In this document: positions 7,596 to 31,721 of the stretch, piece after piece
How the letters are laid out: the number at the start of each line of letters is the position of its first letter
Position numbering within the stretch: the first letter of the stretch is position 1
NCBI RefSeq assembly: GCF_004010195.1
Contig: NC_057753.1
Span: 7,946,520 to 7,988,549 of the forward strand
DNA: 42,030 nt
Reading direction: 5' to 3'
Source: Chiloscyllium plagiosum
Taxonomy: Eukaryota
Position numbers and translations under genes: made by a program
The notes under the pieces: model-generated
The model's input: only the letters and a program-made list of their open reading frames with translations
What the model was told of the DNA's origin: nothing
Databases searched by the model: none

Positions 7596-9129
7596 TCACT
7601 TTTTCAATTTTTTGATTATTTTACTGTAGAAATTCATTGTATATTTGAACACCTTGTTCAACTCAACTCTGAATTTAGCCTGGGTGCCAGCATAAATAAA
7701 CGGATTAATGCACGAACTCAATAATTGAAGCATAAATCCCGTTTCTTGGAGAATAAAAATGGAATTGGCAAAATCAGAAGCAGAAGGATATGTCAGATTT
7801 GCAATTCGTACATAGCAAATTGTTACGAAGTATAGCAAATATAACAGGACGAAACTACCCGAGACCGTGAAAAGTAAAACAATGGACTTTCTCCTTCTTT
7901 CCACCTCTGGGTCGCTCTGATTTTCTCTCGTGCTGTGGGACCGGAGTTTCCTACGGCTTCTATTAGCTGTAAGAATGTGTCTGATGGTCAGCACATTGAG
8001 CAGTAATATCAGAAGAAAAGGGAGACAAGGTGTTAAAATAATTCGAATCCAGTCGTATGCAGCCCATGCAAGGGATGTATAAACAATCGCCTTTATTCCG
8101 CAGAGCCAAGGTGTATTGTCAATTACATAGATAGGTTCATACGCAAAATATGAGACAGTGTTTTTGAGACAGCTCATAATAGACAGAATTCCTATGACCC
8201 ACGCAGCTATCTTCTTAGTACAATATTTCAGTTTCAGTGTCTTGCAAGAAATTGCCACAAATCGATCAACAGTGAAAAAAACGGTTAACCAGGCAGAACT
8301 GTCAAGGGCTGCATAATTTAGAGCAGAACGAAGACTACATATTGGTGTGATGAACAAGAAACTAAATGGAAAATAAATTCCAGCAACACGGTTTAGTATT
8401 ACAGCCGTCAGCATCACCAGGAGATCCGTTACAGCCATGGACACCAAGTAATACGTGACGCATTGACACAGACCACATCTTCCTCGAGACAGGACAACAA
8501 TCACTATACAGTTAGCTTCCAGAGAGAGAGAAAGAGAAATTACGTAAGAACATACATTCATTAAGAGAGGGCAATGGCTTAGTGGCACTGAAATTGATAA
8601 GTAATCAAGAGACTGACATAACATCATTGATTCTGAAATGTCAATTATGCAATTCACTTATTTTCATGGAATTAGGAGTCTGGTGATTACCATGAAACGA
8701 TGGTCATAAAATCCTACCTGATTCCTTAATGCTCTTCACGGAAGGAATGCTACAATTGTAAATTAATCAGACATATATGTGAGCCAAGATGCACGACAAT
8801 GTTTCAATAATGAAAACTAAATCTGCAGAAGTAATCATCGCCCCGAAAATAAAACCGAGCTAGATTGTGTCAAGTATACCAAGAAAGACGAAAAACAAAG
8901 GAAGCAGCTCGATATAATACATTAAGGCAATGATGAAAAAAAATGATCCCATTGGAGGGAAAGAAGAGTACTTGTCATGTGCAGAAGCATCACTGTAAAT
9001 ATTGGAGTCTTTATGTAGATAAAGAATGGCTCATTTAAGAGCTGAGTAGAATTTTTTACCTGGAATCCCGACAGCAGCTAGTACTGGATAGTAAATAGCA
9101 AACAGCAGCCCTGTCAACATTTCATGCAT
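7596..9129 (-). CDS. GPR139/GPR142-like class A GPCR, copy A; exons 9129-9060 and 8515-7596; 329 aa
   Basis: Exon 1 MHEMLTGLLFAIYYPVLAAVGIP+G, donor GTAAAA at 9059; polypyrimidine tract and AG acceptor at 8517-8516 restore P-A-N in TM1. Seven TM segments with TDLL (TM2), DRF (TM3), ECL2 Cys (PWLC), NPFIY (TM7) and helix 8 KFR. Confidence 0.9.
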
Positions 9130-9167
9130 TTTTAAGCACGTGTGCATATCATTGCAAAGTAGCCTCA

Positions 9168-9214
9168 CTTATACCTGATGCTTGACTCAAGGGGACTAAT
9201 TAGTTTGTTCATTC
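9168..9214 (-). promoter_or_regulatory. Putative core promoter: TATAAG plus adjacent EBF-like and homeodomain sites
   Basis: TATAAG at 9173-9168; ACTCAAGGGGA abutting CTAATTAG at 9185-9203; 30 nt identical to 31739-31768 at the same distance from the ATG. Confidence 0.5.
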
Positions 9215-11759
9215 TTTTGTCATTAGTACAGTCAAATTAACACGTTATATACAGCAGATGCGATTTTCTGATTTGATGGAAAGAAATTGTTTTGCTTTTC
9301 ATGTAAGGTTGCTCTGACGGAACTTCACATAAAATTCAGAATGAATCTAGTAGCATCCTCAGAGCATGAATGTCAGTTAAAAGTACAGGTATTTTTCAAT
9401 TAAAAGTTCGCATTTCTGGAGAATACGCAGCTCAGGTCAGATTTTCAGCATAATTCCGTCTGCGATCTAGCTTATCAGGCATAGCACGTTTTCGAATTTC
9501 CTTGGGACTGTGCTTTAGAAAATCTGTGCATCTGAAGTGTTCCGTTTTCTAGGATCAGTCAAGTCCTGTCAGATTTGATATGCATTGCCTCAATTGTATG
9601 TTTTCACATGTTCGCTGTGCTTTCACAGGACATTTTCTTTCTATCATTCTGGACAAGATCACTGCAACATGACCAGTTCCACTGCAACAATCCTACTCAG
9701 TATGGTAAGGTGCAGATTCTGATCAGATGTATTCAGTAGCGACATGTTAAGATCAAGGTTTATAAACTGAATGAAAACTGCCCTATTCCAGCATCGTGTC
9801 TTTAGGCCACATTTTCTGTGCAAGTGCTGATCTCACTCAGATTATTATTCCACTCTTACTTTATATGAAAGGACTGAGTTCTGCAGTTCAGAAAGAAGAA
9901 TACAATCAGGGCTCCATCAACAATGTGGAGCAGCAAGTCAATTCTGACAGTTATATTATAGGAAAGAGGCAGAAAGAAAAAAGGAAATTATCACAGTGGC
10001 CATCTGTAATAAATAGTTCAGAATGGCAATGCTGTAGTTATTAAATGACTAAACAGAGCCTGGTAACCTTAACGTAAAACAAAGGTTTCTTGTGGTTAAC
10101 TGGCAAACGCTCAACTAGAGAGATGAACGGTCTCTGAGCAGAGTATTACAAATGCACACCTATTATCCTAATCGAGTAAACCTTAGGCTCTTACCACTAG
10201 GCATATGATGGCCTAATTGACTGGCAGATCTAATTGCCCACTACCTACATTCGGACTTCCCCTAACTTATTCCACTCACGTCATTGATCCCTTTGACTCG
10301 AACACGCTGTAATCGAATTATATTTTGATAGTATGTGCTTTTTTCAGTTTATCTCTCCGGAGTTATGTATTCGTCATTATGTTCCAGGACTCTTCTTATA
10401 ATTTATGGGGGCGCCAGGTGGGACGTAACACAATTCTAATCAGTACTCCCATTTTCAAATTAGAGCCTTGGTTTATGCGTTAAAGTTAAAATTGCTGATA
10501 ATTGTGCCGTGGGCTAGTTACACTCCTGGATACCCTGAGACCATATTGGTCTGACATCAAATACCTCTTCCATTCCCAAGCTGATGTCCCAACAAACGGA
10601 CTACATTATTGTGATTAGCTGCATCTTGAGCGGTATGAGTGCTAGAACAACATGTTTCATTAGTTATCTATAATTACTACAATATCTGCATCTATGTATA
10701 ATCTAAATTAGTACATTTATATAACTATGCAATTAAAACAAAACTTAAATACGTCATGACAAAATTCATTCTGACATGAAGGTTACGTATAACCAAGTAT
10801 AATTAGCCAAATTCAAGGTCATAGCAGTGCTCATGATTCTTCGATAAATGCAATAACAAGGAGGGTCTTACTGAAACTAGAGTACATAAATCTGGAAATA
10901 AACGAGAGCCACTTGGCATTGAAACTGTAATCTAAAATATTAGTTCGTTGCTTACATACTGTACAGAATTCCCTGAATTATTTCTTTGTCAAATGAAGCT
11001 TAAGTAATACCACAGGACGCTGGAATATTAATATCTGCATTGCCGACATAATCAGACTACCGTGATATCAGATTAATTGAGAAACATACAGATAACTGAT
11101 CAGAACTAAACTAAATCAATTATGAAATCTATGTTTACTTATTAAACTCTCAGGTAAAAAAAATGATCTTATCTAGCTTTACTTCGCATTACTGTTTCCC
11201 AAAACGTATTTCATCTTTTTGCATGCTATGTGATATTTTAAAATAGAAAATTAGCTCAACCAAGTGAAACTGACCTTGCTATATTTAAGTTACATATTGT
11301 GACTTGTCAGAAACTAGTTATCTACCTGACTATAAAGGTAGCTTACTTTTCTTTACGTTTTCACCTCTTAATTCGTGGCATATTCAAATCGTCGAAGGAT
11401 GACTCAAATACCAACTTATCTCGGATTCAGTGTGCGACACCGATCAGGGGAGCAAATGCAAACGATCATTCTGAAATTAGATGTTTTTCATTAAATACTA
11501 CTTCCAGACATATTGTTTCGATTCACTAAATAAGATAAACCAATATATATCATTCCACCCGTGTCAGTATAGCAGTTATACAATTCGCTAAGTATGTATT
11601 CATTAATAAAGTACAGAATTCAAACTTTTGGAAAGTCATATATGTTCTTGACAGATGTGAAAAGAAACCATTTCGTGGAATGTGTAGGAGTTTTTTTCAA
11701 GACCTTACTCTGTATTGCATTTTGTTGTTGTGTATTACTCTGCATCCATCTTTTTTGTA

Positions 11760-11905
11760 TTAGAGAGCAATATAGCATGGAAACACATACTTCCGTCCGA
11801 CCAGTCTGTGCCAAACATGATCGTCTAGATACATCTGCCAGCTCTTGGTCCTTATCCCTTCAGAACTCTTCTGTTCATCTACCTCTCCAAAAGTCTCATA
11901 ATCAT
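11760..11905 (-). mobile_element. Degenerate CR1/SINE-type 3' end fragment
   Basis: ATAGCATGGAAACACATACTTCCGTCC resembles the CR1 3' end at 17845-17880. Confidence 0.5.
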
Positions 11906-11914
11906 TGTGGCTGA

Positions 11915-12297
11915 AAGATTTACTGTTTCTTCCTGAGAGCAGGAATATGGGAAGACATACAAGAGGATCAGAGGATTAGATAGGGTAGTCAGTGAAAGTC
12001 TTTTTACTAGGATGATGACGTCAGCTTGTACGAGGGCGCATAGTTCCAAATTGAGGAGTTATAGATTCAAAACATGTGTCAGAGGAAGGTCAGAAAGTAG
12101 TAAGTGCGTGGAATGCCCTGCCTGCCAGTGAGGTTAACTAAGCCACATTAGGGGCATTTATAAATCCTTGGATAAGAACATGGATGATGATGGGATACTG
12201 TAGGAGAATTGGCAGTGATTAGTTTACTGTCGGGCATAACGGTATTCAGTTCAGCAGAGAAAGACCTTGTCGGTGTTGTATTGTTCTATGTTCTATT
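11915..12297 (+). mobile_element. Degenerate CR1 3' fragment
   Basis: ATCAGAGGATTAGATAGGGTAG...GGAATGCCCTGCCTG...TTGTTCTATGTTCTA tail; same family as 40555-40878. Confidence 0.8.
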
Positions 12298-12949
12298 CAC
12301 TGCAGGACAAGTGGAAAAAGGCAGGGGGCAGTGACACTCTTTGAGCTGTGGCTACTGTGTCGAGTTATCACCGACGGTGTTGCAATTTTACTTGAACAAT
12401 GTTCACAGCCTTGTCTATTGTGTAATCATGGTCGGTTGATTTGAAATCTACTGGGGTATCAGGAAGTTCAAGCCTTCCTAAATATGATACTCATTTTCTC
12501 TGATTTTAAACCAGTGTTTGCATGCATACCTGTTCAAAAGCATGACATGAAGCAAGTCGCTGATGTTCGTGTGAGGAGAATATTAAGTCAATCCACTCAT
12601 ATCTGGCCATGTGAACCGGCTTTCTGTGAAATTTCAGAACAAAACCTTTCCGATAAGCAATAAGGGCTAAAATGAACCGACACACAAAAGCGGAGAATTG
12701 TTTGATAGCATTGCAGACAGATTAACTGTTCATTCAGTAAGAAACACAAACTAACATGTTTGTTAATGCAGATTAACAATTACTGTCGCAAAGAGCGGGT
12801 AACAGAAAGGTGCGAAAGAGGGGAAATAGCACCAGATTTGACTCGAAGACAGAGACAAAACAATGGGGATAGGAGGCAAAAAATAAGAAGAGAAACCTTG
12901 CTTTACGTTGAAAGACAGGGTATATCCTTAAACAAAATACAAAACGTTG

Positions 12950-13430
12950 AAAGGCAATGAATGTGGATGGAGTGTAGTAACAAAGAGTTGGAAAACGATT
13001 CTGGTTAAATCATTAATCTCTGCTCTGGGAATATTCTACTTTTTCGTGACGTCATGAAGCACGCTGGATTGTAGATATGAGGAATCTGCAAGAGAATATA
13101 AGTGCATTATGCATGAAATACACAAAGATGTCGTTCAAGTGCAGCAAGTATTGAAGAAAGCAGAACCATTAAAAGAAATTCTGAAATTTGGAGTTTAAAT
13201 ATATGGAAGTTATTTTACAATATTACCGAGTTTTCGTGAATTCATTCTGTGAATAATGTTTACTGTTATAATTCTTGTCATCATGACCTGGCATACTGAC
13301 ATTGAATTCCGTTTAAAAATAATTCATCAGCATGAATCTTGGGATAAATAGCTGAGAAGTCAAAAACATCGAGACAGGTTCAACATCATTCAGTAGAATT
13401 TAAAATAATCACGGTTGGTTCTATTGAAGC
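12950..13430 (+). mobile_element. Very old CR1 ORF2 fragment
   Basis: Weak similarity to the region WQMEFN through QVQQVLKKA and QRRFTRM in other CR1 copies. Confidence 0.45.
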
Positions 13431-14571
13431 AAAACTAATTGACATCTTGCTGTGCTAATAAATCGTATCAGTAAATTCACGCTTTGGAGACATGAGTTTG
13501 ACTCGCAATGAGGCTCAACCAAAAATAACGTGAGCAAACAGCAACTGTAGACCCAATGATGATTGCTCGAAAAACGAACACCTCGCCCACTGATGTGTCT
13601 AATTTCCTCTGCAGAACGATATCTCCCATTAATGTCTGGCCTGGCTGTTGCTCAAGTTTTGAACACTAACAAAAGAAGCTCACAGTTAATGAGAAATACA
13701 AAGAAAATGAGACTTTTTGAGGTAACTTTGCTAATCTATGCACGAAGATGTTCACAGCCACCGTACATGCTTTGTCAGTTATTTAATCTTATGATAAATC
13801 ATCGTCTGCTCGGATAATGTTTCACAATCAAGCTCGACATCAATAAAAGAAACTGCCCCAGTACAATAACACTGCCCTACTTCAATTACTTGTGTAGTTT
13901 TCTCAGTTTTGTACTGTTCCTTGTGTCTCTTCTGACTCGTTTACACAGGGAATTTGTCCTGACTCAATCAAAATGCTAAGCCATCATCCACAACGACAGT
14001 TGAAATTGGAAAAATTTAAACAGTTCATGCTATGACTATCTCTCACTCTCACCCCCATTTGCTGTATCACCACCCGCCCATCTCTGTGTCTTTGTCTGTG
14101 TGTGCATAAGAGATCACTCTTCCTGAAAAAGGGAAAGCGATGTCAAAGGATGAACGTAAAACACCCACGACTAAAATTAGCGAGAATACTTTTAATTTTG
14201 TCAACAGTAATATAAACTGTCAACAGTTGATGGTGCAAGCTTTAAAAGCGCAGAGGCAGTAAAGTCATATCATAACCTGAGCAGTGTGGGGAATCCCAAG
14301 CAATATGATTTTGATATTTCGGTCATGACTTTGGAGTCATCGAAGGGCCGTATCAGAAAATGTTGCAGTGGGGTGTGAGTGAGTATCAGGAGCTGTTTCA
14401 AACAGTTGTGTCTCATGATGGAAGACGTCTGAGGAGTCAATTCTGGCCATCAATGTAGGCGGAAGCAGGACTGTTAAGTGCAGTTGATCAGAGGTAGTTC
14501 CAGTTCAAGAAATACTTGTTTGTTCTGAAAGAAAATAAGGTTTTAAATAATTCTTCTTCGATTTTCAAATT

Positions 14572-17107
14572 TCAAAATTGTTTTATATTAAGCAGTAGGC
14601 TCAGCGGATATTTTACACCTTCTCTAATTCAGTTCTGAATTTACTCTGAGTACAGCATAAATAAATGGATTGATGCAGGAACTCAATAATTGAAGCACAT
14701 ATCCACATCAATGTCGAAACGATTCCAGAGACTGAGTAGTAAAGAGCATTTGAAATTCCAACATTCTGTATCGTGACAAAAAACTACTAAATTCAACAGA
14801 AGAAAACTGCCTGAGATTGCGAAGAGGTAAACAATAGATTCCTTTCCCTTTTCCATTTCCAGGTCACTTTGATTCTCTCTATTCCTCTGGATATGGAGGC
14901 TCCAGCAGGATTTTTAACTGCTACAATGTGTCTGACAGTCAGAGCATTGAGCAGTAAAATGAGAATAAATAGGCGCATAGGGTTTAAAATGCCACGAAAG
15001 CATTCGTAGGCGGCCCATGCAGCTGGCAAATAATATACCTTTTAAGATGGAGACAGTGAGGTCTTCAATTGCTGGAGATCAGTGTTGAGTGTGTGTTTTT
15101 GATTCAGATTCCTTATGAAGGGCTCTGGCCCGAAACATCGATTTTCCTGTTCCTCGGTTGCTGCCTGACCTGCTGTGCTTTTCCAGCAACACACTGTCAT
15201 ACGTTTTAAGATGCAGAGCCAGGGTATCTTGTTCTCTATGTCGATAGGTTCGAAAGCAAAATAAATGCAGGTATTTTTAGGGAGCACAGCGTAGACACAA
15301 TACCTAGAACTCCAATAGCCACATTCTCTGTACAGGACTTTATTTTTTGCTTCTGGCCATAAATGGCCACAAATGAAGCAAACGTGACACTGACATTAAA
15401 CAGATAGAAATGTTGACAACTGCAAAATTTATTGCAGTGCACACACTGCATACGGGTGTGACAGATAGGAAACTATAAGTTGAAAGTCCAATTTTTTAAT
15501 CCAATGTACTATCACAGCCGTGACTATGCCTAGAAGATCGGCTATTTCCATGGACAACAAGTAATAAATGATGCATCCAGGGAGACTGCACCTTCGGGAG
15601 AAGATCACGATTACTGTCAGGTTAGCGGCTGGAGAAAAAGACAAGACAATCGAAACGGATTCGACTCGAATAAAATCATTCATTGCATTGCACTCTGTGC
15701 CATTCGAAGAGTTGAGGCACGAACAAAGGTGGAAAGTGGCCTCTCATGCCGGGTCACTTATTTGGTAAGTTTGACACAGTCACCTTGATTAAAATATGCG
15801 ACATCAATGACTCAAAGATGAAGGAAATGTCATGAGCTCTGACAAAATTCAAGAAGAAATGGAAACGTACATCTAACCAATCACAGCAACATCAAGAAAA
15901 TGATAAGCCAGCAAAGAAACATAGATATACTGAAGTAAGCAAATAATAGAAGAAGCAGCAATATGTCTAGAAAAGACATAAACTCAGGTTTTACCATAAC
16001 CAGAATTTAATACGGCTTCCTTTCAACGAAATATCTGAAAAAAGTTCACCTTTGAAAACATTGAAAGATCATTTATTCAAACACGATCGGACACAAAAAG
16101 ACGTGAGCAGGAAATCTGTGTTTCTTCAATTTTGTTGCAGAAATTTTGACCCATCATTACAACATGCTATATCAGTGTCTATGGTGTGAAGCAGACAGTA
16201 TTAAAGATTGAGAGCAGAAAAAAGTAACTGTTCTATGTTGCAGCCAACTACAAATCATCCATTAACAGGAAACACTTTACAGTAGTGCGAAAATCGTGGA
16301 GCTGAATATACTTTACTTCATAAGGGCATTCACCGAATTTCGCCTTAAATTGTTCAATATTTAAATTCTCTGAACAGAGCAACCATCGTGAGTATTCCCC
16401 CCATTCTAAATTAACCTTAACATCATACATCCCAACTGTTACAATGTCATAATTAAAGCACTGAAAGAATCGACATGAAGAAAAGAGAATTTCAATTACA
16501 CTGAGATGATATTGTGGATATTCAATTGCATGAGCATCGCCAATGATACAACAGAACTCCTTCCAACCATAATAACTGTTGGCGATTCAAAAACAATGGT
16601 CTGCCACTAATACAGTGACATGATTTTCATTTGTGATGAAATTACAGTAAGTTTGGAAGGTTATGTGTTTAAACTTGTGGGATGTTTTTGAGGTAAACAG
16701 GCAGTGTAACTTTACAGAAAACACATGTTATGGTTCAATGGAGATGGGACTTCTATGCCAATAATAGAATAACAACGGAATTAAATTCAGTGAAGGAAAG
16801 CACTGAAATCGTGAAACTCGGCCAATAAATAGGAAAAATCGTAACTTGAACATGAAGTGTTTAGGAACACGCAACTGAAGGTAAAGACATTGCAGCTGAG
16901 ACCAGATTAATGCAGGCTCATTAAAGCATATTCATACTATGTAGAATAGTAACCGTAAAAATGGGAAGGACTCATTATGAATTACGTAGTTTTATAGAGT
17001 GAATGATGTAGATTGTGAAATTTAACAAATATTTTACCTGGAAGTCCAATTGCTGCAAAGAAGGGATGGTAAATGGCAAACTGCAGACCTTTTACTCATG
17101 CATGCAT
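14572..17107 (-). pseudogene. GPR139-like GPCR pseudogene; exon 1 17107-17038, exon 2 about 15628-14572
   Basis: Exon 1 reads MHA*VKGLQFAIYHPFFAAIGLP+G then GTAAAA (70 nt, in-frame TGA). Exon 2 has fragments ANLTVIVIFSRRC..YYLLSM..ADLL, PWLC, AWAAY, LLNALTVRHI and LQLLSSCINPFIYA in different frames, plus an insertion at 15050-15198. Confidence 0.88.
15050..15198. mobile_element. Short Penelope-derived element inserted in the pseudogene
   Basis: Same family as 18840-19063; 15-bp TSD ATAC(C/G)TTTTAAGATG at 15035-15049 and 15199-15213; degenerate hammerhead-like core at 15112-15139. Confidence 0.8.
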
Positions 17108-17444
17108 GTCTATCAGAAGCTGCGAATGCATTTGCTAAACCCTTCAAAATGAATGGTATTGTGCACATGTCAGGTTCCAGGGAATTATATGAAATTGTAT
17201 ATTCATGAAAGTAGTTTCAATAAGCAAATGAGTTGTAAGTACAGGAACTCTGGCGTTGATACAATATTGCAGCAGATGGTTTTTCATAGAATGTGCCAAG
17301 GACCGAAGTTGGAATATCCAGCACTTATACAAAAGAGGCATTGCAAAGAGAAATTCTGAAAAAAATGGGTCTGTCCAAAGTCGTTGTGTATTTCGCTGAC
17401 CAGACCAGACTTCTCTTACCATGTGTCATGCATCCATATCCGGT

Positions 17445-17730
17445 AGAGTTTAGCTCGATGAGGGAGAATCCCACTAAAATGTTATGAGAAGCCTGGATAG
17501 AGTGTTTCCGATTTCAGGAGAGATGAAGACGCGAGGGCACAGTCTCAGTGTGAAGAACACACTCTTTAGAAACTGAGATGAGGACGAATTTCTTTAATTA
17601 GGGAGTGGTGAAACTATGTAATTCATTGACATGGAAGACTATAGTGGCCATAACATTGTGTGTAGGTTTTATAGAGATAAATAGATTTTTGATTAATGAG
17701 GGGAGAGATGATTAGGGGCAGAAGAGAGGG
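17445..17730 (+). mobile_element. Old CR1 3' fragment
   Basis: Degenerate RGHSL...TEMRTNFF..GVVKL..SL...FKAEIDRFL-like sequence. Confidence 0.7.
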
Positions 17731-17819
17731 GAAAGTTTGATTTTTAATTATTTATTCATTTCGTGTAATATTGGCCTCGCTGGCTGGCACGTGTAATGTT
17801 TTGGAATTCAGGTACAATT

Positions 17820-18460
17820 AGAGTCATAGAGTCACAGAGCATGTACAGCATGGAAACAGACCTTTCGGTCCAATCCGGCCATGCTGACCAGATATCCCAA
17901 CCCAATCTAGTCCCACCTGCCAGCACAAGGCCACCAAACCCTTCCTATTCATATTCTCTTCCAAATGTCTCTTAAATTGTGCAATTATACCAGCCTCCAC
18001 GAATTCCTCTGGCAGGGCATTCCATACCCGTACCACTTTCTGTATGAAAAAGTTGCCTCTTAGGTCTCTTTTATATCATTCCGCTCTCACCCTAAACCTA
18101 TGCCCTCCAGTTCTGGACTCCCCGACCCCAGGGAAAAGAATTTGCCTATTTACCCTATCCATGCCCCTCATTATTTTGTAAACCTCGATAAGATCACCCC
18201 TCTCCCTACAGCTCAAATCCTCCAAACCTGGCAACATCCTTGTAAATATGTTCTGAACCATTTGAAGATTCACAACATTTTTCCGATAAGATGGAAACCA
18301 GAATTGCACGCAATATTCCAACAGTGGCCTAACCAATGTTTGTAGAGCCGCAAAATGACCTTCCAACTCTTGTACTCAATACTCTGACCAATAAAAGAAA
18401 GCATACCAAATGCCTTCTTCCCTATCCTATCTACCTGCGACTCCACTTTCAAGGTACTAT
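17820..18460 (-). mobile_element. 5'-truncated CR1 LINE
   Basis: TLVRPLLEYCVQFW motif with frameshifts; (ATGACTCT)n tail at 17820-17840. Confidence 0.88.
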
Positions 18461-18839
18461 GACTGGATTGGTAAAACTATTATGCTATAGCAAAACACAC
18501 TTTATTTTTTCACCAGTTAAATACAGAGAGACGAAAACCAAATAGTTTAAATCTAACTCTATTGAGATGGTTAACAAAATGATATAAGATTTAACTTCTC
18601 TCCTAAACTGTTCCAATGATGCCGCATCCAGAAAGAAACTTAGCAAAGATCAACATAAAGGAGAACTCGAGAACACAAAACCAGCAATAAAGGGAGAACA
18701 CAAGCTTCCACAACAGTAACGAAACCTGTGTCGTCTGAAAATCCAGCTTCACCAACTGATAGTAAAACTGGAAACTCTGGGTCGGTGTATGTCTGACTCC
18801 ACCCATACATTCTTACTTAGTCGACTTTAAATAACACAA

Positions 18840-19063
18840 GGGGAAAGTGAGGACTGCAGATTCTGGAGATCAGAGCTAAAAATGTGTTGCTGGAAAAGCG
18901 CAGCAGGTCAGGCAGCATCCAAGGAGCAGGAGAATCGACGTTTCGGGCATGAGCCCTTCTTCAGGGTTCCTGAAGAAGGGCTCATGCCCGAAACGTCGGT
19001 TCTCCTGCTTCTTGGATGCTGCCTGACCTGCTACGCTTTTCCAGCAACACATTTTCAGCTCAG
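18840..19063. mobile_element. Penelope-derived hairpin element with two inverted hammerhead-like cores
   Basis: 93-bp inverted arms (18873-18965 / 18969-19061); CTGAAGA-A-GGGC-TCAT-GCCC-GAAAC-GTC on both strands; 14-bp TSD TTTAAAT(A/G)ACACAA at 18826-18839 and 19064-19077. Confidence 0.85.
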
Positions 19064-19269
19064 TTTAAATGACACAAACTAGTTTAATTGCTTTACAAGG
19101 GGCAGATGGCTCATCACCAGATTTACAATACTTACTATCAAGAGCAACAGGACCGCACAAATCGCGCTATAAAAGCAGATGTTTTCACAAGATACATAAC
19201 TAGGAACACACTGACAAAGTTAGGAGCAAAAGAAGAATATTTGACTGCTCACATATATGCTTGCGTGAA

Positions 19270-19990: not shown

Positions 19991-19998
19991 CTGCGAGC

Positions 19999-20520
19999 CA
20001 CTATCAATACTGACACAGTCCACTAGGAGTCACTGTATATACAGATAAAATTCTCATGGTTGCCCTGTAAATACTGAACTACTTCCTATGGACTATCATA
20101 AATGCTGACATACCTTCTACGCTGCCACTGTAAACGATGTTAAACAACACACATCAGGTAATAGTCTCATAGGTTTATTTGGAAGTACTAGCTTTCGGTG
20201 GTCTGAACCATGATCAGGTAGCTGTGGAGCAGGGTCATAATACATAGTGTTATAAATTCTGTGCATTATAATCCTACCTTACAGCTACCTTATGAAGCAG
20301 AAGTACTCCGAAAGCCAATAATTTGAAATTAGCCTGTCGGACTATAACCTGGTGTTGTGCGATTTCTAACTTGGTCCATTCCAGTCGAACACCGGCACTT
20401 CCACATCACTGTAAATAATGACGTTATAGTCCAGGACGTCCTACAAGTGCTGATACATTCCCAATGCACTCCTCTAAATACTGACCCTGTCCCTGAAGAT
20501 TCCTATAAATACTATTCACT
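19999..20520. repeat. Degenerate 31-32 bp minisatellite interrupted by a Penelope-derived insertion
   Basis: CACTGTAAATACTGAC-like core at 19999, 20031, 20063, 20094 and 20126, resuming at 20407 and about 20439, 20470 and 20501. Confidence 0.55.
20140..20406. mobile_element. Older Penelope-derived hairpin element (second family)
   Basis: Imperfect inverted arms (about 20139-20247 / 20258-20371) with CT(G/T)ATNA...CCGAAAGC cores; flanked by CACTGTAAA(CG/TA)ATG. Confidence 0.7.
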
Positions 20521-21216
20521 AATTGAGAATGTTCCATGATTACATAGTGACCCTATGTACGTGAAAACAAACTGCCTGGCACACCATTTGAAGAAGAAAT
20601 CAGCTTTAAAAAATCTTCTTGCTACAGAAACGATAAGCCAGCATTAGAATCCGAGAGCGATAGTCTGGAACTGTTTTAACTTCTTGAAGGTACGAACTGC
20701 CTGACCTGAAATCCTTTCACTTTCCTTGACTTTCTCCACAACAGTGCACATTCCTGGGAATTTTCCAGCCCTGGACAAGACCAAATGGAATTTGGATGCA
20801 AGGACAATCAGAAACACTTATTAATAGAAAGTCTGCGATCTACACTGTAACCAAGTGCATCCTGTCAGAACTGATCCAGCATATCTACTATCCTCACCGG
20901 CCTGTGACCCTGTAACTATGCTCAGAGAAATCCGACATTTTGGCTGATCTGCTGGAAGAAGGGTTGGAGAACTTCCTTACAGGGATGCAGGATCTTCCAT
21001 GCTGGGTCAACCTCCCAGCAGCAGGCTGGTTGAAATCTAAGGAGATTATATGCCACTCATTTAGCTGTCGAGTAGAATTCATTGAATAGATGCATGAGAG
21101 CATTTAATTTGGTTTGATATATCTTATTGTCACATATATTGTAATACAATGAAAAGTATTGTTTTGCATCCTATCCAGCAAAATCATTCCTTGTATAAGT
21201 ACATCAAGCCAATTCA

Positions 21217-21480
21217 GCCCTGCAGCCGCTCTGTGGTTAGCACTGCTGCCTCACAGCACCAGGTTCTGAGATTCGATTTCAGTCCTGGGGAATGTCAGCG
21301 CAGTGTTTTCACATTCTCCCCATTTCTGTGTTGGTTTCCTTTTGCAGTCCAAAGATAAGCCGGGTAGTCGTATTCGCATGTTTAATATCAGGTTATGGCG
21401 TCTAGGTGGGACGTTTTTCAGAGAGTCAGTCTGGTTCTAATGGGCCAAATGGCCTCTTTCATTTTTGTAACGATTGTATG
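21217..21480 (+). mobile_element. Old degenerate HE1-like SINE
   Basis: GTGGTTAGCACTGCTGCCTCACAGC head; paralogue of 1637-1915. Confidence 0.75.
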
Positions 21481-22887
21481 GTTTCAGAATATAGTGCTCC
21501 AAGGTCCAAATTAAAATCTCACCCAGTTCCTGAATGTTCTCAGTTCAACCATGTTTACTTCTATGAATTATTGACTGTAGGGGTCCTGAAAATTAAGTTA
21601 CAGAACTTGAGTGAGGGATTGCTCTTTACGAACTGTTTGCCAGCCACGCTTGTGATTCAGTTCAATCGATGCATTTATTTGGGTATGTCAATCTTTATGG
21701 AATGTAAACAATGTGCAGTGTGAGGCAGAGAGGCAGCAGATTGGCATAAGGTGAGAATTTGGTTCAGGGAATTAATGTAGACACAACGTACTGAAATGTC
21801 CCAGTCATTATGTAATAATTTTGTAATTTTCTGAATTTGCTTAAGATCTTGTTCTCAAAAGAATATGTTCTAGTTTTTTTCTAGAGAGTGTTACTTAGTG
21901 GCATACTAGCATTGAAGTATGACAATGATGCGTCGTGAATCTTCACATGATGTGGGCAGTTACGGAGCCGGAGGCATGCTGATTTGAATCATTGTTTTTG
22001 ATTTATTGAGCAGACGTGATAGTCGCACAGTCTAAATACTAGGTTGTAAACTTGTCTTATTCCCAGACAGATTACACCATTCAACATAATCAATTTCGTT
22101 AGGAATTCGCAGCCTCTCGCCACAGAGCTCTCTTCTCATGAACTTGCACACTAGACTTGTTCCGTTTGTACCTTTGTCATAAAAAATATGCACTTGCTGA
22201 ATATGTGATGAATTTCATGCTTTCTGTTCTTAAGCAAGAAGAATTTCGACACATTTTCGATCAGAACAAACGAACGCCATTTCTAACTGATATCTATCCC
22301 GACACACACCGACAAAACCATGGCAGCGCGAGAATTCTATGCACTTCGTCCTATCGAGGTGACTGCTATCATGCAATTTTCTTTTTTAATTTTTCCCATG
22401 GTCACTTGGGACAATTATGATCTTCACAATGGCGCGCTGAAGTGGAACAACATCCAACAATTGTTCTTAACAATCATTGCTGTATAAGCCGGAACTCGTT
22501 GGCTTATCATTCAAAATTCAAAACCAGCGTCGAATACCCTTGAAAAGAGATACGCCTGGTTGATACGTTGGATGAATTGCTTAATATATCAGAGTAAGAG
22601 TTGATGCTTTTGAAACACAAAATATCACGAGAGGATTTCAGAGATCAGATATTGGCATCATGGTTCGACTTGTGAGGGAGTTCCATGCCAAGTTACAAAA
22701 ACATTGTAGAATGGTTGTTGAATGACAGCCATTCATTTCAGGCTCCGATAGAATGTAATTTCTTCTTTAAGAGATGATCAATATCTCAATTTCTCTATCC
22801 CAGGCACTAGAGGAATCCATATCACTGAAAGCCTTTTTAGAATTTGTGAAGCATCAAAACATTGATGGATGTGAGGATTGGCACTTA

Positions 22888-25800
22888 AAGACCATAAGAC
22901 CATAAGACCTAGGAGTGGAAGTAAGGCCATTCGGCCCATCGAGTCCACTCCGCCATTCAATCATGGCTGATGCGCATTTCAGTTCCACTTATCAGCGTTC
23001 TCCCCGTAGCCCTTAATTCCTCTAGACAACAAGAATCTATCAATCTCGGCCTTGAAGACATTTAGCGTCCCGGCTTCCACTGCACTCCGTGGCAATGAAT
23101 TCCACAGGCCCATCACTCTCTGGCTGAAGAAATGTTTCCGCATTTCTGTCCTGAAATGGCCCCCTCTAATTCTAAGGCTGTGTCCACGGGTCCTAGTCTC
23201 CTCGTCTAACCGAAACAATTTCCTAGCATCCACCTTTTCCAAGCCATGTATTATTTTGTACGTCTCTATTAAGTCTCCACTTAATCTTCTAAACTCCAAC
23301 GAATACAATCCCAGTATCCCCAGTCGTTCCTCATATGTTAGACCTGTCATTCCAGGGATCATCAGTGTGAATCTCCGCTGGACACGTTCCAGTGCCAGTA
23401 TGTCCTTCCTGAGGTAAGGGGACCAAAACTGGACACAGTACTCCAAATGGGGCCTAACCAGAGCTTTATAAAGTCTTAGTAGTACATCTCTGCTTTTATA
23501 TTCCAACCCTCTTGAGATAAGAGACAACATTGCATTCGCTTTCTTAATCACGGACTCAACCTGCATGTTTACCTTTAGAGAATCCTCGACTAGCACTCCC
23601 AGATCCCTTTGTGCATTGGCTTTATTAATTTTCTCACCATTTAGAAAGTAGTCTATGCTTTTATTATTTTTGCCAAAGTGCAAGACCTCGCACCTGCTCA
23701 CGTTAAATTCCATCAGCNNNNNNNNNNNNNNNNNNNNNNNNNNNNNNNNNNNNNNNNNNNNNNNNNNNNNNNNNNNNNNNNNNNNNNNNNNNNNNNNNNN
23801 NNNNNNNNNNNNNNNNNNNNNNNNNNNNNNNNNNNNNNNNNNNNNNNNNNNNNNNNNNNNNNNNNNNNNNNNNNNNNNNNNNNNNNNNNNNNNNNNNNNN
23901 NNNNNNNNNNNNNNNNNNNNNNNNNNNNNNNNNNNNNNNNNNNNNNNNNNNNNNNNNNNNNNNNNNNNNNNNNNNNNNNNNNNNNNNNNNNNNNNNNNNN
24001 NNNNNNNNNNNNNNNNNNNNNNNNNNNNNNNNNNNNNNNNNNNNNNNNNNNNNNNNNNNNNNNNNNNNNNNNNNNNNNNNNNNNNNNNNNNNNNNNNNNN
24101 NNNNNNNNNNNNNNNNNNNNNNNNNNNNNNNNNNNNNNNNNNNNNNNNNNNNNNNNNNNNNNNNNNNNNNNNNNNNNNNNNNNNNNNNNNNNNNNNNNNN
24201 NNNNNNNNNNNNNNNNNNNNNNNNNNNNNNNNNNNNNNNNNNNNNNNNNTGACCTCCCTTTACTAAATTCATGTTGACTTGTTCTAATCAGACTCTGCTC
24301 TTCCAAGAATTTAGAAACCTCATCCTTAATGATGGATTCTAGAATTTTACCAACAACCGAGGTTAAGCTGATTGGCCTATAATTTTCCATCTTTTGCCTT
24401 GATTCTTTCTTGAACAAGGGGGTTACAACAGCCATCTTCCAATCATCCGGGACCTTTCCTGACTCCAGTGGCTCTTGAAAGATCTCAACCAATGCCTCTG
24501 CTATTTCCTCAGCCACCTCTCTCAGAACTCTAGGGTGTATCCCATCGGGGCCAGGAGATTTATCAATTTTAAGACTTTTTAATTTTTCTAGCACTATCTC
24601 TTTCGTAATGGCAGCCATACTCAACTCAGCCCCGTGACACCCTTTAATTTTTGGGATATTACTCATGTCTTCCACTGTGAAAATTGACGCAAAGTACTTG
24701 TTAAGTTCTCCTGCTATTTCCTTATCTCCCATCACTAGGCTTCCTGCATCAGTTTGAAGTGGCCCAATGTCTACTTTTGCCTGTCGTTTGTTTCTTATGT
24801 ACTGAAAGAAACTTTTACTATTATTTCTAATATTACTGGCTAGCCTACCTTCATATTTGATCCTCTCATTTCTTATTACACTCTTTGTTATCCTCTGTTT
24901 GCTTTTGTATCCTTCCCAATCTTCTGATTTCCCACTGTTCTTAGCCACTTTATAGGATCTCTCTTTTTCTTTAATACATTTCCTGACTTCCTTTGTCAGC
25001 CAAGGTTGTCTAATCCCTCCCCGGTTAATCTTTCTTTTCTTGGGAGTGATCCTCTGTACAGTGTCCTCAATTATACCTACAAACTCCTGCCATTTTTGCT
25101 CTGCTGTCTTCCCGGTTAGCCTCTGCTTCCAGTCTATTTTAGTCAGTTCCTCTCTCATGCCCTCATAATTACCTTTATTCAACTGTAACACCATTACATC
25201 CGATTTTGCCTTCTCCCTTTCAAACTCCAGACTGTACTCTACCATATTATGGTCGCTACTTCCTAAGGGTTCCCTTATTTTAAGATCTTTTATAGAGTCT
25301 GGTTCATTGCAAAGCACTAGGTTCAGAATAGCCTGCTCTCTTGTGGGCTCCATGACAAGCTGTTCCAAAAATCCATCCTGTAAGCATTCCATGAATTCCC
25401 TTTCTTTAGATCCACTAACAACATTATTTACCCAGTCCACCTGCATATTGAAGTCTCCCATGATCAATGTAACCTTGCCTTTCTGACATGCCTTCTCTAT
25501 TTCCCGGTACATGTTATGTCCCTGGTCCTGACCACTGTTAGGGGGTCTATACACAACTCCAATTATGTTTTTTTTTGCCTTTGTGGTTCCTCAATTCCAC
25601 CCACACAGACTCCACATCATCCGACGCTATGTCATTCAATATCATAGATTTAATTTTGTTCTTAACTAACAAGGCAACCCCACCCCCTCTGCCCACCTCT
25701 CTGTCTGTTCGATAAGTTGAAAGACCATGGAGGTTTAACTGCCAGTCCTGACCCCCCTGTAACCAAGTCTCTGTGGTGCCTACTACATCATAATCATTCA

Positions 25801-26785
25801 CTATTATCTGTGCCATTAGTTCATCGGCTTTGTTATAATTGTTACGAGCATTCAGGTAAAGTGCCTTAATGCTAACTTCCTTATCATTAGAGATGTTGGA
25901 AGTCATATGTCCTAAGTTATCCTTGCTTTTTACTGCATTCTCAGTCTGCCTCAATTTTAAATCCGCCTGGAAACATGCTATCCTGCTGCTTATCTTGCCA
26001 TTTACCTCCATACTCCCTGTGGCTTTCACTTTCCCTTCCCCCCAACTCAGAAAGTTTAAAGTCTTACTGACCACCCTATTTATCCTCTTCGCTAGAACAT
26101 TGGTACCTGATCGGTTCAGGTGGAGACCGTCCCAACCGTTCAGATTCCCCCTGTTCCAAAACTGATGCCAATGCCCCATGAAGTGGAATCCCTCTTTCCC
26201 ACACCAATCCCTTAGCCACGTGTTTACTTGCCTAATTTTCTTGTCCCTATGTCAATTGGCACGTGGCTCGGGCAGTAATCCGGAGATTATGACCCTTGAG
26301 GACCTGTGCTTCAATTTCCTGCCTAGTGCTTCGTAATGCCCAAACAGGTCCTCCACCCTAGTCTTGCCTATGTTGTTGGTACCAACGTAGACCGCAACAA
26401 TTGGATCCTCCCCCTCCCGCTCCAATATCGTTTCAAGCCGGTCGGAGATGTCTCGCACCCTGTCACCGGGCAGGCAACACACCATGCGAGACTCCTGATC
26501 CGGCTTGCAAAGGATACTATCTGCCCCCCTAATTATAGAATCCCCTATAACCACTACTTGTCTATTAGCTCCCCCCTCTTGAATGGCCTTCTGCACCATG
26601 GTGCTTTGGTCACTTGGCTCATCCTGTCCAGAGCCCTTTTCCTCATCCGAACAGGGAGCAAGAATCTCGTACCTGTTGAACAAGGTCAAGGGCTGAGGCT
26701 CCTCCACTCCTGAACTCCGGTTCTCCCTACCTGCTTCACTTACAGTCACACTCTTTTGTGCCTGATCACTAGCTGAATGTGAATT
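22888..26785 (-). mobile_element. Near full-length CR1 LINE (partial ORF1 SGNH esterase plus ORF2 APE-RT), inactivated
   Basis: ORF1 motifs GDSIIRG, VGTNN, DGLHL; APE motifs YLNAR, TETWL, YRPP, MGDFN, SDHN; RT motifs KSPGPDG, NYRPISLTS; (TATGGTCT)n tail; candidate TSD ACTTA (22883-22887, 26786-26790). Stop at 26252-26254 and frameshift at the T run near 25570. Absent from copy A at about 3630. Confidence 0.95.
23718..24249. other. Assembly gap (532 N) inside the CR1 RT domain
   Basis: Run of N. Confidence 1.
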
Positions 26786-29117
26786 ACTTACTCTGGTATC
26801 AGACTGGCACAGGCCATATGTCATCTTAGAGAATGGCAGAGCAGTTTCAAGGGCTGAATAGCCGACTCCTATTTATATTTCCCACATTCCCATATTTCCG
26901 CACTTCTGTTCCACATTGAAAATTCGTGACACCATATGTTTATTCCTCTCAATCACCAAGAAAATTGTTCGCATTTTCCACTTCTCAAGTATGACACTTT
27001 CCTGGAATTTAAATACATTTTCAGCCCTTGTTCTGGATTATTCTGTAGTCACTCCTTCCGATGCTACATTCTAGTGACTTTTTTTATCACTCTCAGCAGG
27101 AGCAGAGAATCGTGATTCACCAAACTGACTATTGTGATGTATTGGAAAGTCTTCTATTTGGATTACAGTCTTGGCTTTGCAAATGTGCGAAACACTTCCA
27201 GTTGACATTCAACTGAATGTAGTACTGATTTCTATTGGGATTTGTGTTGCATTAGGTGTAGTATTTGCATTCAAAGTTGAGGACTTCCAGAACAAGTTTC
27301 TCATCATGATCGTCAAGAGGTGTTTGCCACTTGCAGGGCAGCTGAAATTTTGAAGCAACATCGCAAACATAGAAATTGTGATGCTACTTTCAGGGATATT
27401 GCTGTAAGGAATGATTGGTTGACTTATACTGGGACAGCTCCATCTGTGTATGTCTCATTTGTGCGATATCATTAAAGGTCTGCAAAGTGGAATGGCAGTA
27501 AATGTTCCATCTATCTTCACGAGCAAATATCCATCAGGTTGGTGGATGTTTTTAACAGTAACGCAATTCTGTTTATAACAGGAAGTCTGCAAAGATGATT
27601 CGGAGCAGTTAATTCGGGAGTCCAAGCTGCTGCCAAGTACCTGGGTAACACCGTGGGAGGCCTGTGACTGGCATATGCTAAGATAGGTTACAAGGCATCA
27701 TTTTCATCATCAAGAATGGAAGTACAAATGGACAAAAAAGTCTTTAAATTGATGATCGCAACAGATGTAATAATTGGACATGGCAATTCGTTGTCTGAAA
27801 CCTGATATCGAACTCTTTATTTTTATTTGTTTTGTGATAGTGCAAATGTCAGAATTTTAACAACGTCTCAACGAGTGAAAGAAGCAGCAATAACTTTGCT
27901 TGGAATAAACTGTCAAGCGACAAGTTCAAGGTGTTCTGCTTGAAATGAAAGCAGTTAGTAATGTCTGAGAAAATAATCTGTTGAAGATACATGAACAAAG
28001 CTGCTTTGACATCTGCTTGAATACTGTGTGCTTTGTCTCACAAGGACAACTGATTTCCCATCAGTAGAATTTAAAGAGTTAACCACAGGAAAACTGACTT
28101 CGAACTCACAGCCAATTCCAAAAGTAACAAGGGAAGAGGAAGATAAATCTGGCCGTGAGGCAAGCTGCAGGCTTCCAATATTTAGGAACATGTCACAAAT
28201 TTGAAGGACGGAGAATGTGTAAGTAATAAACTCCATGGTTTCTGAGGAGAAGAACTCCAGAGAACTACACTGCATAAGGCCCGAGCCCTGGACACACCCA
28301 GAGACAGAAACTGTTGGTTGGAATCCTATCTAAATCCTACCTTAACCGGGTAATAGTCAAGCTGAGTTCTGATGCTTCACTTACTTACGTGAGGAGTATC
28401 ATTATATTTCCAAAATGTAGTGAAATTTAAATTATTGCTTCAGTACTCGAATATCGGTGAGATGTCCTAATTATGTCGAATTAATGTTAGCATGTAGTAA
28501 TGTAAACACAACTCTTTATTTTGTTTTTAAAAAATTGTGCCTGTTTGATATACACGCATATATTCATTCGTTTTTTTTTACCGTAACCGCAGAACAGAGG
28601 TGTGGCATGCAACATAAATGAAGGCAAAATACGTTAAAGCAATTTACTTATATATGATACAAATGTAACGGGCTTCAAACACATGATCAAAGGGATTTCC
28701 AATTATATAGGAATCACATCTATTCTGGCTTCACACGGAGGGAAAGTTCATCCTTATCACCTGCTTAGAGTTTGCCTTTATTTACAGTCAATTCCTAACT
28801 TGGCAAATGGATGTAATGTCGCATTTAGCTAAAACCTCCCTAGCTTCTAAAAAAACCCATATGCGGTTTCAAACAAACATATCAGGCTGATAAAATTTTG
28901 AAAATTCCCTTCGATGAGGTCATGTAAATTATATAAAATGCAAAACTAACTCCCAATCTTATGAGCAACTGCTTTTCAATTGCAGAATTATCAAACATTC
29001 ATGCAGAATTTTTAACTTTAACCGGCAGCTGTTTCCCCCGATTCCAAACGACACCAATTTCTATCGTATCATGTCTAAAGCATAAATGCTTATCTTGTTT
29101 ATTCATCAATTTCGAAT

Positions 29118-29253
29118 AATGTACAGAGAAATTTATTACCTCCAGGAGGTAATAAATTTGGCCTTGATTTTTATTTGGCCTTGATTTTTATGTCCTCTTT
29201 GTCTACAGGAGTAGTGCCAGAAGACTGGAGGATAGCAAATGTGGTTCCCTTGT
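29118..29253. other. Copy-B-specific complex insertion: palindrome, tandem duplication and internal CR1 fragment
   Basis: 15-bp perfect inverted repeat (29129-29143 / 29145-29159), 17-bp direct repeat (29157-29190), then CR1 ORF2 piece LALIFMSSLSTGVVPEDWRIANVVPL. Confidence 0.8.
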
Positions 29254-29384
29254 CAACAATAAATAATTTTGGCTGCTGAACTACTCGGATCTCACACAAT
29301 GCCAAGACTTAAATAGTAGGCACGTTGAGTCTGGAGTCATTCCATCCAAAACTCTGCCAATTCTATAAGTCAGCATTTCCCATG

Positions 29385-29608
29385 AATAAACCACGTCACT
29401 TCCACATTCTTGGATACTATGTACAATTTGCTATGGATAAACCCCATTTTTCGACTGTGAAGTGAAACCAAAGCAACCGGAGAAAACACACGCGCACACA
29501 GAAAGAATGGGCAAATTGCACACAGAGAGTCTAATGGAAGTCGGATAGAACCTGAGTATCTGGCGCTGTGAAGCAGCAGGACAAACCAAAGAGCGACCCT
29601 GCTCACGC
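29385..29608 (-). mobile_element. Old degenerate HE1-like SINE
   Basis: GAACCTGAGTATCTGGCGCTGTGAAGCAGCAG; paralogue of 6830-7058. Confidence 0.7.
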
Positions 29609-30163
29609 TAAATGTTGTCGTTAAATTCTTGAATAGAAACACTGAAACCAATGTGCCACTAGTTCAAATGGAAACACAAAACTTATATGCCACTGCTGTG
29701 CCTTCAAAACCCAAAACTCATAAATAAATGTTATCAATCTGTGAATTGTGCACCTCATGTCACACGACCGCTGTTACAGATTGAAATGGCTATGCACATC
29801 CATGGTTGTTATCCAACCTTATCAATGGCATCAGTGTTGCCAGTTCTCTGGCTTCTTTGAGAAAGTGCTGTTTTTTCAAGAAATATCACACCCAAAATCA
29901 TATTTTTCAAAGGCAATTTTCAGTAGGTCTGACTGGCACATCACATGGAAGCTCACAAGGTATGGGTCAGCAATACATAATAGAACTAAGTGAAATTGAG
30001 AAAACATGCGAAGACTGCTGTCTGCTATAATTTGATATTCTTCACATGTCCTTGATTTGAAATTTAATTAGGATGCAAACGTGAGAACAGAAGCGGGCTT
30101 GGATGTGGCATGACCGTGGAATTCACATTCTGTAATCTAAACTATGGTACATGTTACATTATC

Positions 30164-31683
30164 CTATTTCAAATGTTTGAGTATTTTACTGAAGAAACTT
30201 ATCGGATATATGAGCCCCTTCTTTAATTGAACTCTGAATTTAGCCTGGGTGCCCGCATAAATAAACGGATTAATGCACGAACTCAATAACTGAAGCATAA
30301 ATCCCATTTCTTGGAGAATAAATATGGAATTCGTAAAATCAGAAGCAGATGGATATGTCAGCTTTGCAATTCGTACATAGCAAATCGTTAGAAAGCATAA
30401 CAAATATAACAGGATGAAACTACCCGACACAGTGAAAAGTAAGACAATGGATTTTCTCCTCTTTTCCACCTCTGGATCGCTCTGATTTTCCCCAGTGCTC
30501 TGGGCCCGGAGTTTCCTGCGGGTTCTATTTGCTGTCAGAATGTGTCTGACGGTCAGTGCATTGAGCAGCACTATCAGAATAAAGGGCAGACAAGGTGTTA
30601 AAATAATTCGAATCCAGTCGTATGCAGCCCATGCAAGTGATGTATAAACAATGGCCTTTATTCCGCAGAGCCAGGGTGTATTGTCAATTACGTAGACAGG
30701 TTCATATGCAAAATATGAAACCGTGTTTATGAGAAAGCTCGTAACAGACACTATTCCTGTGATCCACGCAGCCATCTTTTTCGTACAAAATTTCATTTTC
30801 AGTGTCTTACAAGAAATTGCTACAAATCGATCAAAAGTGAAAAAAACGGTTAACCAGGCAGAACTGTCAAGGGCTGCATAATTTAAAACAGAACGAAGGC
30901 TACATATTGGTGTGATGAACAAGAAACTATAAGGAAAATAAATTCCAGCAACACGGTTTAGTATTACAGCCGTCAACATCACCAGGAGATCCGTCATGCC
31001 CATAGACACCAAATAAAACGTGATGCATTGAGATAGCCCGCATCTTCCTCGAGAAAGTATAACGACCACTGCACAGTTCGCTTCCAGAGAGAGAGAGAAA
31101 GAGAAAGCAAGTAAGAACACACATTTATTAATAAGAGGAAATGGCTCAGTGGCATTGTAATTGATAAGTAATCAAGAGATTAGCTTAAGGTTGATGGTTC
31201 CGAAATTTCCATTATGCCATTCAGTTTTTATTACCATTAAACAATATTCATAAAATCCCACCTGATTCTCTAACGGTCTTTATGGAAAGATTGCTACTTC
31301 TGTAAATTGATCGGCCGTACATGTGACACCAAAGGCACGGCAATGTTTCAATAATGAAAACTCTATCTGCAGAAGTAAGAAATCACTTACTCTGAAATAA
31401 GCCGAGCTAGATTGTGTCGACTATACCAAGAACAACGAGAAAAAAAGAAAGAAAACAGTTCGATGATATACATTACAGTAAGGTTGAGTAAAATTGGTCT
31501 CATTGAATAGAAAGAATGATTCTTGTCATGTGCAAAATCATCACTGTTAATATTCAGTCTTTATGCAGATAACCAATGGCTCATTGAGCAGCTAACTGAG
31601 TACAATTCTTTACCTGGAATCCCGATTGTTGCGAGTACTGGGTAGTAAATAGCAAACAGCAGACCTCTCAGTATTTCATGCAT
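30164..31683 (-). CDS. GPR139/GPR142-like class A GPCR, copy B; exons 31683-31614 and 31080-30164; 328 aa
   Basis: Exon 1 MHEILRGLLFAIYYPVLATIGIP+G, donor GTAAAG; acceptor TCTCTGGAAG at 31081; intact 7TM with DRF, PWLC and NPFIY. Confidence 0.9.
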
Positions 31684-31721
31684 TTTTGAACACGTCTGTA
31701 AATCATTGCAAATTAGCTTCA

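Follow-up and report, generated by a model that had tools for sequence, protein, structure and literature searches.

A multiplied GPR139-related orphan receptor family of sharks and rays as a candidate chemosensory repertoire

What is sensed by the receptors that a short stretch of shark DNA encodes in several copies? The window analysed here is the whole stretch of 42,030 nucleotides from Chiloscyllium plagiosum (contig NC_057753.1, positions 7,946,520 to 7,988,549). It contains two intact genes, g1 and g3, and one pseudogene of the same family. An earlier interpretation of the bare letters (the sequence-only reading) had taken them for GPR139-like receptors and for a possible part of a repertoire that senses amino acids or metabolites. 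According to the reading favoured here, they belong to an undescribed chemoreceptor repertoire of sharks and rays that is directed at water-borne chemicals and probably operates in olfactory sensory neurons; the chances of this proposal are judged to be evenly balanced. That these are likely overlooked smell receptors is deduced from the varied predicted ligand pockets of the family and from a promoter motif of the type found in smell neurons. A more specific version is held slightly more tentatively, its chances falling just short of even: sharks and rays would possess a fifth large family of olfactory receptors, one that arose from a GPR139-related orphan receptor, came independently under Lhx2/Ebf control, and now outnumbers all of their known OR, TAAR, V1R and V2R genes taken together.

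Two intact receptor genes and a pseudogene

A six-frame translation of the whole window yielded two long reading frames on the minus strand, one at 8657-7599 and the other at 31171-30167. A broken homologue lies at approximately 15.6-14.6 kb, amid pieces of long and short interspersed nuclear elements (LINEs and SINEs). Each of the three minus-strand genes could be modelled with two exons. Exon 1 of g1 (9060..9129, 70 nt) extends from the start codon to the middle of transmembrane helix 1 (TM1) and ends in a phase-1 donor. A GT-AG intron of 544 nt interrupts TM1, and the intact exon 2 (7596..8515) encodes the remainder of this helix and continues to the stop codon; the product of 329 residues is free of internal stops. 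In g3, a first exon of 70 nt (31614..31683) and an intact second exon (30164..31080) are separated by a GT-AG intron of 533 nt, again inside TM1, and the product comprises 328 residues. Its exon-2 part was modelled confidently as a seven-transmembrane protein (predicted local distance difference test, pLDDT, 92.7).

The proteins encoded by g1 and g3 are identical in 276 of 328 residues (84%). Synonymous divergence (dS) is 0.29, nonsynonymous divergence (dN) 0.078, and the intron distance 0.24; with a dN/dS of 0.27 and both frames intact, the two genes are under purifying selection. Both encode class A (rhodopsin-like) G protein-coupled receptors (GPCRs), as is evident from the seven helices and the hallmarks N1.50, D2.50, C3.25, DRx, P5.50, and NPxxY. 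Pro6.50 and Trp6.48 have given way to other residues. With Asn1.50 already at residue 25, the N-terminus is very short, and the same N-terminal length occurs in 75 of 83 relatives with a readable start. At a cut-off of E 0.01, 7tm_1 was the only Pfam family matched by g1 (E 3e-23) and g3 (E 3e-21), and membership in one of the known chemoreceptor families (OR, TAAR, V1R, V2R, T2R) was rejected on this basis. The matches and trees of both proteins likewise lead to GPR139-like orphans and not to these families.

Exon 1 of the pseudogene (17038..17107, minus strand, 70 nt) has the splice phase of g1 and g3 and an intact donor, and carries a stop at codon 4. Exon 2 (14600..15628, minus strand, lower end approximate) contains stops and frameshifts, as well as the insertion of a high-copy repeat (15040..15213) flanked by a 10-nt target-site duplication (15213-15204 and 15049-15040). 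The DNA is 68% identical to g3, and among the 192 proteins matching the pseudogene, g1 ranks 101 and g3 ranks 114. It is an older paralogue and no close sister of the two intact genes. These models confirm what had been read from the letters, namely three same-strand paralogues, two intact and one dead, with very short N-termini; even the proposed limits, 7596 and 31683, coincide exactly with the stop of g1 and the start of g3. The common two-exon layout is confirmed with one refinement: the length and splice phase of exon 1 are equal in all three, and the pseudogene intron, with 1,409 nt, is longer.

A family of many copies and its apparently single-copy sister gene

A search with exon 2 of g3 in a protein set clustered at 90% matched 1,451 proteins among 3,428 candidates. 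The best 120 of these matches are 51-70% identical, and the 119 that carry a species name are all from sharks. Heterodontus (horn shark) contributes 71, Rhincodon 16, and seven other genera the remainder. The 71 Heterodontus proteins exhibit 71 distinct strings at 26 pocket sites, and only five pairs are more than 92% identical. At E values up to 1e-30, an exhaustive search resulted in 103 clusters formed at 50% identity. Of thirty more distant proteins whose records were consulted, 19 belong to the family and come from sharks or rays, another belongs to it without carrying a name, and the remaining ten fall outside. Leucoraja, Rhinoraja, Hypanus, and Mobula are among the genera represented; no chimaera occurs among the named proteins, which on the distant side comprise only these 30. 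Deep subfamilies are common to sharks and rays, and species-specific bursts are superimposed on them, for example a Heterodontus-only clade of 31 members (support 96 in the FastTree phylogeny of the close set). Taken by themselves, the cartilaginous-fish rows form a weakly supported clade (85/65). In a DNA run, the summed contig depth was 784 at one TM3 site versus 13 nearby; depth is not copy number, and the value is a hint of many similar copies.

Public catalogues list members of the family, albeit with misleading names: most are automatically called 'probable GPR139', some 'capa receptor-like', 'GPR15-like', or 'TRHR-like'. Several public gene models are over-long or fused (P0111, P0121, and P0161), one of them with zinc fingers. 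The family may be hidden from orthogroup surveys because of faulty gene models and inconsistent automatic names. In the accessible literature, which excludes most subscription papers and supplements that may list the genes, no paper on the shark/ray family was found.

The affiliation with GPR139 turned out to be more distant than the sequence-only reading had assumed for g1 and g3. Human GPR139 was absent from all 58 matches of g1 at E values up to 1, and it was not among the four matches of g3 at E 0.001. A profile of the close family scored GPR139 with 55.7 bits, level with TRHR (57 bits). A broad profile that included distant relatives placed GPR139 first, with 140 bits versus 110 for TRHR. 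An initial structure prediction was of poor quality (pLDDT 56), and the second one (pLDDT 92.7) was used for fold searches; its identity to GPR139 is 21%, a value that many peptide receptors reach as well, and the searches do not single out GPR139, which ranks 6 in Foldseek and lies outside the top 50 of VIA. Orthology of g1 and g3 to GPR139 was rejected in view of this low identity, the missing match by g1 alone, and the loss of all five agonist-site residues described below. For the wider group, GPR139 appears to be the nearest human receptor, as judged from the broad profile and from the sister gene and other low-copy relatives, whose best match among solved structures is GPR139. The shark family shares the class A fold and common words in TM1, TM3, and TM7 of the alignment with GPR139 (PDB 7vug, 9m42) and GPR142. 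GPR139 has been characterised as a strongly conserved receptor that is expressed in the brain and linked to the FMRFamide and MIP receptors (PMC12208981), whereas the shark family amounts to at least tens of copies in a species. Among the atlas look-alikes of the family are Srw-family clusters from nematodes and from chordates.

One of the distant matches was a salamander protein, which has the motif reaching from the third intracellular loop to TM6 in common with the family and is 29% identical to g3 over 289 residues. Its own search yielded 25 matches among 1,675 candidates. Of these, 20 are amphibian clusters, each from a different genus and together covering all three orders; four are cartilaginous-fish proteins, and one is from a sturgeon. 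None of the 25 is from an amniote or a teleost, an absence that is soft because the search was word-based. The corresponding orphan gene (P0226 and P0279-P0298, one sturgeon record being flagged as unverified) is automatically named 'probable GPR139' and conserved at approximately 70% across the amphibian orders; no paper on it was found. In two maximum-likelihood trees it joined with the shark/ray family (99; 100/100), apart from amphioxus proteins and from two more vertebrate lineages of low copy number. Before alignment, 95 of 314 proteins were removed because their match was too short. The trees contain no true GPR139 or GPR142, as none is among the stored proteins; a protein search for them retrieved 11 amphioxus-type proteins only. 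On the strength of the two trees, it is well supported that the sister group of the shark/ray family is this apparently single-copy amphibian/sturgeon gene. Unlike the shark family, the sister gene is represented by one cluster per genus in 20 genera, and its pocket is invariant.

The two further low-copy GPR139-like lineages (P0221, P0228, P0242, P0251, P0258, and P0263) occur in coelacanth, bichir, and teleosts. They, with P0221, P0228, P0251, P0258, and P0263 among them, are probably GPR210A and GPR210B. GPR210A/GPR210B are orphan relatives of GPR139 and GPR142 from coelacanth, gar, and teleosts (Rinne et al. 2019, PMC6504862), and the main text of that paper names no shark or cartilaginous fish. 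These candidates are likewise unstudied vertebrate relatives of GPR139/142, yet they form branches separate from the shark family in both trees. The amphioxus proteins are 11 paralogues automatically named GPR139 (P0268 and P0303-P0312), of which P0268 scores 80 bits to human GPR139.

Ligand pocket, promoter element, and duplicated flanks

In GPR139, activation by Trp and Phe has been tied to F109, H187, W241, and N271 and, by modelling, to R244; mutants of F109, W241, or N271 show sharply reduced responses to both amino acids (PMC5430874, including its Table 1). The corresponding positions, read by eye from the alignment, are F3.33, H5.42 (5x43), W6.48, R6.51, and N7.39 (7x38). None of the five is kept in g1 and g3, which contain Y, R, Y, Y or C, and F, respectively. 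Among 122 close rows, 48 retain none of these residues, 56 retain one, 18 retain two, and no row retains more. The 71 Heterodontus rows alone display 44 different five-site strings. In contrast to g1 and g3, all 24 amphibian rows (four of them near-copies) contain F, Q, W, and N, plus a Lys in place of R6.51, which is still basic; three of the five residues (F3.33, W6.48, and N7.39) are kept. The ligands of g1 and g3 are therefore probably not Trp or Phe, and the aromatic amino-acid ligand that had been suggested finds no support in these two receptors. Because 25 of 26 pocket positions are equal in g1 and g3, a similar ligand is probably shared by the two.

A comparison of paralogues and orthologues with the same mean identity (0.77) revealed opposite patterns. 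In the Heterodontus paralogues, the entropy is 1.14 at the 26 pocket positions versus 0.72 at 47 other outer-half positions (p=0.008), whereas the amphibian orthologues have values of 0.04 and 0.42, respectively (p=0.0002). The divergent set agrees with the former (2.58 in the pocket versus 1.98 at other outer-half positions, p=0.005). The contrast between a variable pocket in shark paralogues and a fixed one in amphibian orthologues is well supported. The most variable transmembrane positions in the close set are 5.43, 3.29, and 6.51.

An identical element, TAATTAGTCCCCTTGAG, is located 73 nt upstream of the start codons of both g1 (9186..9202, minus strand) and g3 (31740..31756, minus strand), followed by a TATA-like box at -44. 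It consists of the homeodomain core TAATT, two purines, and an O/E (Ebf)-like core, to which the respective factors would bind. In the pseudogene, a homeodomain core directly abuts an O/E-like core (17176..17187, minus strand) 80 nt upstream of the start. The pattern TAATT N0-6 CCCYNGR, which makes use of the published O/E core, has three sites in the 42 kb, one before each gene; 0.48 are expected, and three were reached in none of 100 shuffles. A purine/pyrimidine-class pattern after TAATT was matched by the g1 and g3 sites alone (two versus 0.21 expected), and for a tighter pattern the expectation is 0.01. With one mismatch allowed, the composite pattern gave two matches, which 4 of 100 shuffles equalled. 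Taken on its own, the O/E core shows no enrichment in the window (8 sites versus 8.5 expected). In spacing and register, the g1/g3 site corresponds to the Lhx2/Ebf composite probe from the mouse enhancer Sfaktiria (PMC5608512, supplementary file 7). In mammals, homeodomain and O/E sites are reported to be enriched and needed in odorant receptor promoters (PMC3247239, PMC12547500), and receptor enhancers are driven by a composite in which the Lhx2 and Ebf parts lie next to each other at a fixed distance, the Ebf half being a loose pyrimidine-purine sequence (PMC5608512, PMC7804114).

The genes g1 and g3 lie in the two copies of a segmental duplication, copy A (143..11681) and copy B (20394..34797), which are 71-80% identical and have approximate ends; copy B is lengthened by a LINE insertion. 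The window as a whole is rich in LINE and SINE pieces. The minus-strand LINE in copy B (22982-26872) contains long open frames resembling ORF1 and ORF2 (open reading frames 1 and 2) and is interrupted by an assembly gap of 532 N (approximately 23718-24249). An inverted repeat of 189 nt (18873-19061), which is 94% self-complementary, is built of a short repeat also present in the pseudogene and at 33707-33775. A frame fragment at 33684-34009 resembles what we take to be the GIY-YIG end of a Penelope-type retroelement. A 32-nt block at approximately 33334-33365 is identical to its counterpart near 10.8 kb, about 1.7 kb upstream of each start; this identity in the duplicated flanks may be due to chance.

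What the family may sense

According to the favoured reading, a single ancestral receptor with a GPR139-like pocket would have been multiplied in the elasmobranch line. The ancestral pocket, fixed and perhaps adapted to an amino-acid-like ligand, would have diversified after multiplication, the copies altering residues in TM3, TM5, TM6, and TM7 and thereby the ligand. Lhx2/Emx2-type and Ebf factors would switch on each gene in olfactory neurons via the homeodomain and O/E site, and signalling might proceed via Go or Gq to TRPC2, which are markers of shark olfactory neurons; those of the catshark are microvillous and positive for Go and TRPC2 (PMC10116579). The family resembles OR, TAAR, V1R/ORA, and V2R/OlfC in that its genes are clustered and undergo births and deaths, in the variable pocket, in the very short N-terminus, and in the candidate homeodomain plus O/E motif, and differs from them in matching only 7tm_1 and in the intron inside TM1. 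Clustered rhodopsin-type expansions have also been described as candidate chemoreceptors of Aplysia, expressed in chemosensory organs (PMC2700072); the two lineages are independent. The lineage-expanded family with births and deaths that had been postulated is borne out by the 1,451 matches, the species bursts, and the pseudogene, and to its chemoreceptor-like profile two lines of support were added, pocket diversification and the promoter motif.

Several points weigh against an olfactory role. OR genes have no intron in the coding region, unlike the split genes of the shark family, and both Ebf and Lhx2 act outside the nose, too. The motif patterns were defined after the sites had been seen, and they comprise only two independent loci because g1 and g3 represent one event. 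The pseudogene site differs in spacing, and an identical block of 30 nt is not unusual over a duplicated flank of 6.5 kb (86-98% of simulations). A protein scan for further promoters located 35 loci, all distant and without a close family member, which were not used; an exon-1 pattern had no matching stretch in metagenome contigs. The mouse composite form is typical of enhancers and not of promoters (PMC5608512, PMC12547500). A stricter pocket test, from which TM4 was dropped because its anchor is unsure, is weak in all 122 close rows (p=0.065) and in Rhincodon (p=0.27). The p-values of the pocket tests are optimistic because the rows are related, and the list of pocket positions derives partly from general knowledge of class A receptors. 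With respect to expression, no reads fell on exons of g1 or the pseudogene among 12.96 million records, corresponding to approximately 2% of one single-cell run of unstated tissue labelled as the same species, in which reads were observed on repeats only. Another run had a small depth solely in the bin containing the CT-rich splice acceptor, and this signal was disregarded. The top 50 genes of a catshark brain-plus-olfactory library include no GPCR (PMC11979771), which would also be the outcome for sparse receptors. Moreover, robust expression in the catshark nose is already on record for V2R/OlfC genes (PMC10116579).

The strongest competitor, albeit an unlikely one, is a set of diversified sensors outside the nose, be it in taste or solitary chemosensory cells, skin or sensory ganglia, gut, or leukocytes, comparable to the mammalian MRGPRs or the formyl peptide receptors. 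Family size, bursts, and pocket variation suit any ligand-diversified family, and Ebf factors are active in B cells and in other neurons. Furthermore, MAS1 and its relatives have been reported as lacking in cartilaginous fishes (PMC8455134), and these animals have only about four taste receptors (PMC10869828). However, a homeodomain plus O/E-like site before all three genes, in combination with a TATA-like box, points to olfactory neurons, and nothing in the analysis indicates another tissue. Clearly less probable is a mostly neutral drift of copy number in repeat-rich regions, which would leave redundant receptors for one internal ligand or genes that are barely expressed. A LINE- and SINE-rich window with a segmental duplication and a pseudogene, the single differing pocket position among 26 in g1 and g3, and the lack of reads on g1 in the small single-cell sample are in agreement with it; the dN/dS of 0.27 at a dS of 0.29 with both frames intact, the concentration of variation in the pocket, opposite to that in single-copy orthologues, and the deep subfamilies common to sharks and rays are not.

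Least probable of all, though by a small step, is that GPR139/GPR142-type sensors of aromatic L-amino acids have simply been multiplied. For this speak the broad profile and the GPR139 match of the sister gene and the low-copy relatives, the conservation of F3.33, W6.48, and N7.39 in amphibians with Lys for R6.51, and the mild nature of the changes from Phe to Tyr and from Trp to Tyr in g1 and g3. Against this stand the loss of all five agonist-site residues in g1 and g3, the maximum of two in any close row, the strong effect of the GPR139 mutations at F109, W241, and N271 (PMC5430874), and the additional loss of Pro6.50.

A chemoreceptor repertoire of sharks and rays for water-borne chemicals, as favoured here, would bear on a puzzle. 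Published surveys ascribe to cartilaginous fishes a smaller olfactory repertoire than to any other vertebrate group (mean 43.8 genes, range 20-62; PMC10869828) despite large olfactory organs, and their GPCR complement has been called sparse (PMC8455134). This picture changes if the family is olfactory: one subfamily alone accounts for 71 distinct proteins in one shark, compared with an average of some 44 olfactory receptors known from a cartilaginous fish. The apparently single-copy sister gene of amphibians offers a laboratory handle, in Xenopus or axolotl, on the ancestral ligand. If it holds true, a fifth family would overturn the view of a shark nose that runs on a few dozen receptors; if the family is not olfactory, it would still count as one of the largest vertebrate receptor expansions that await an explanation.

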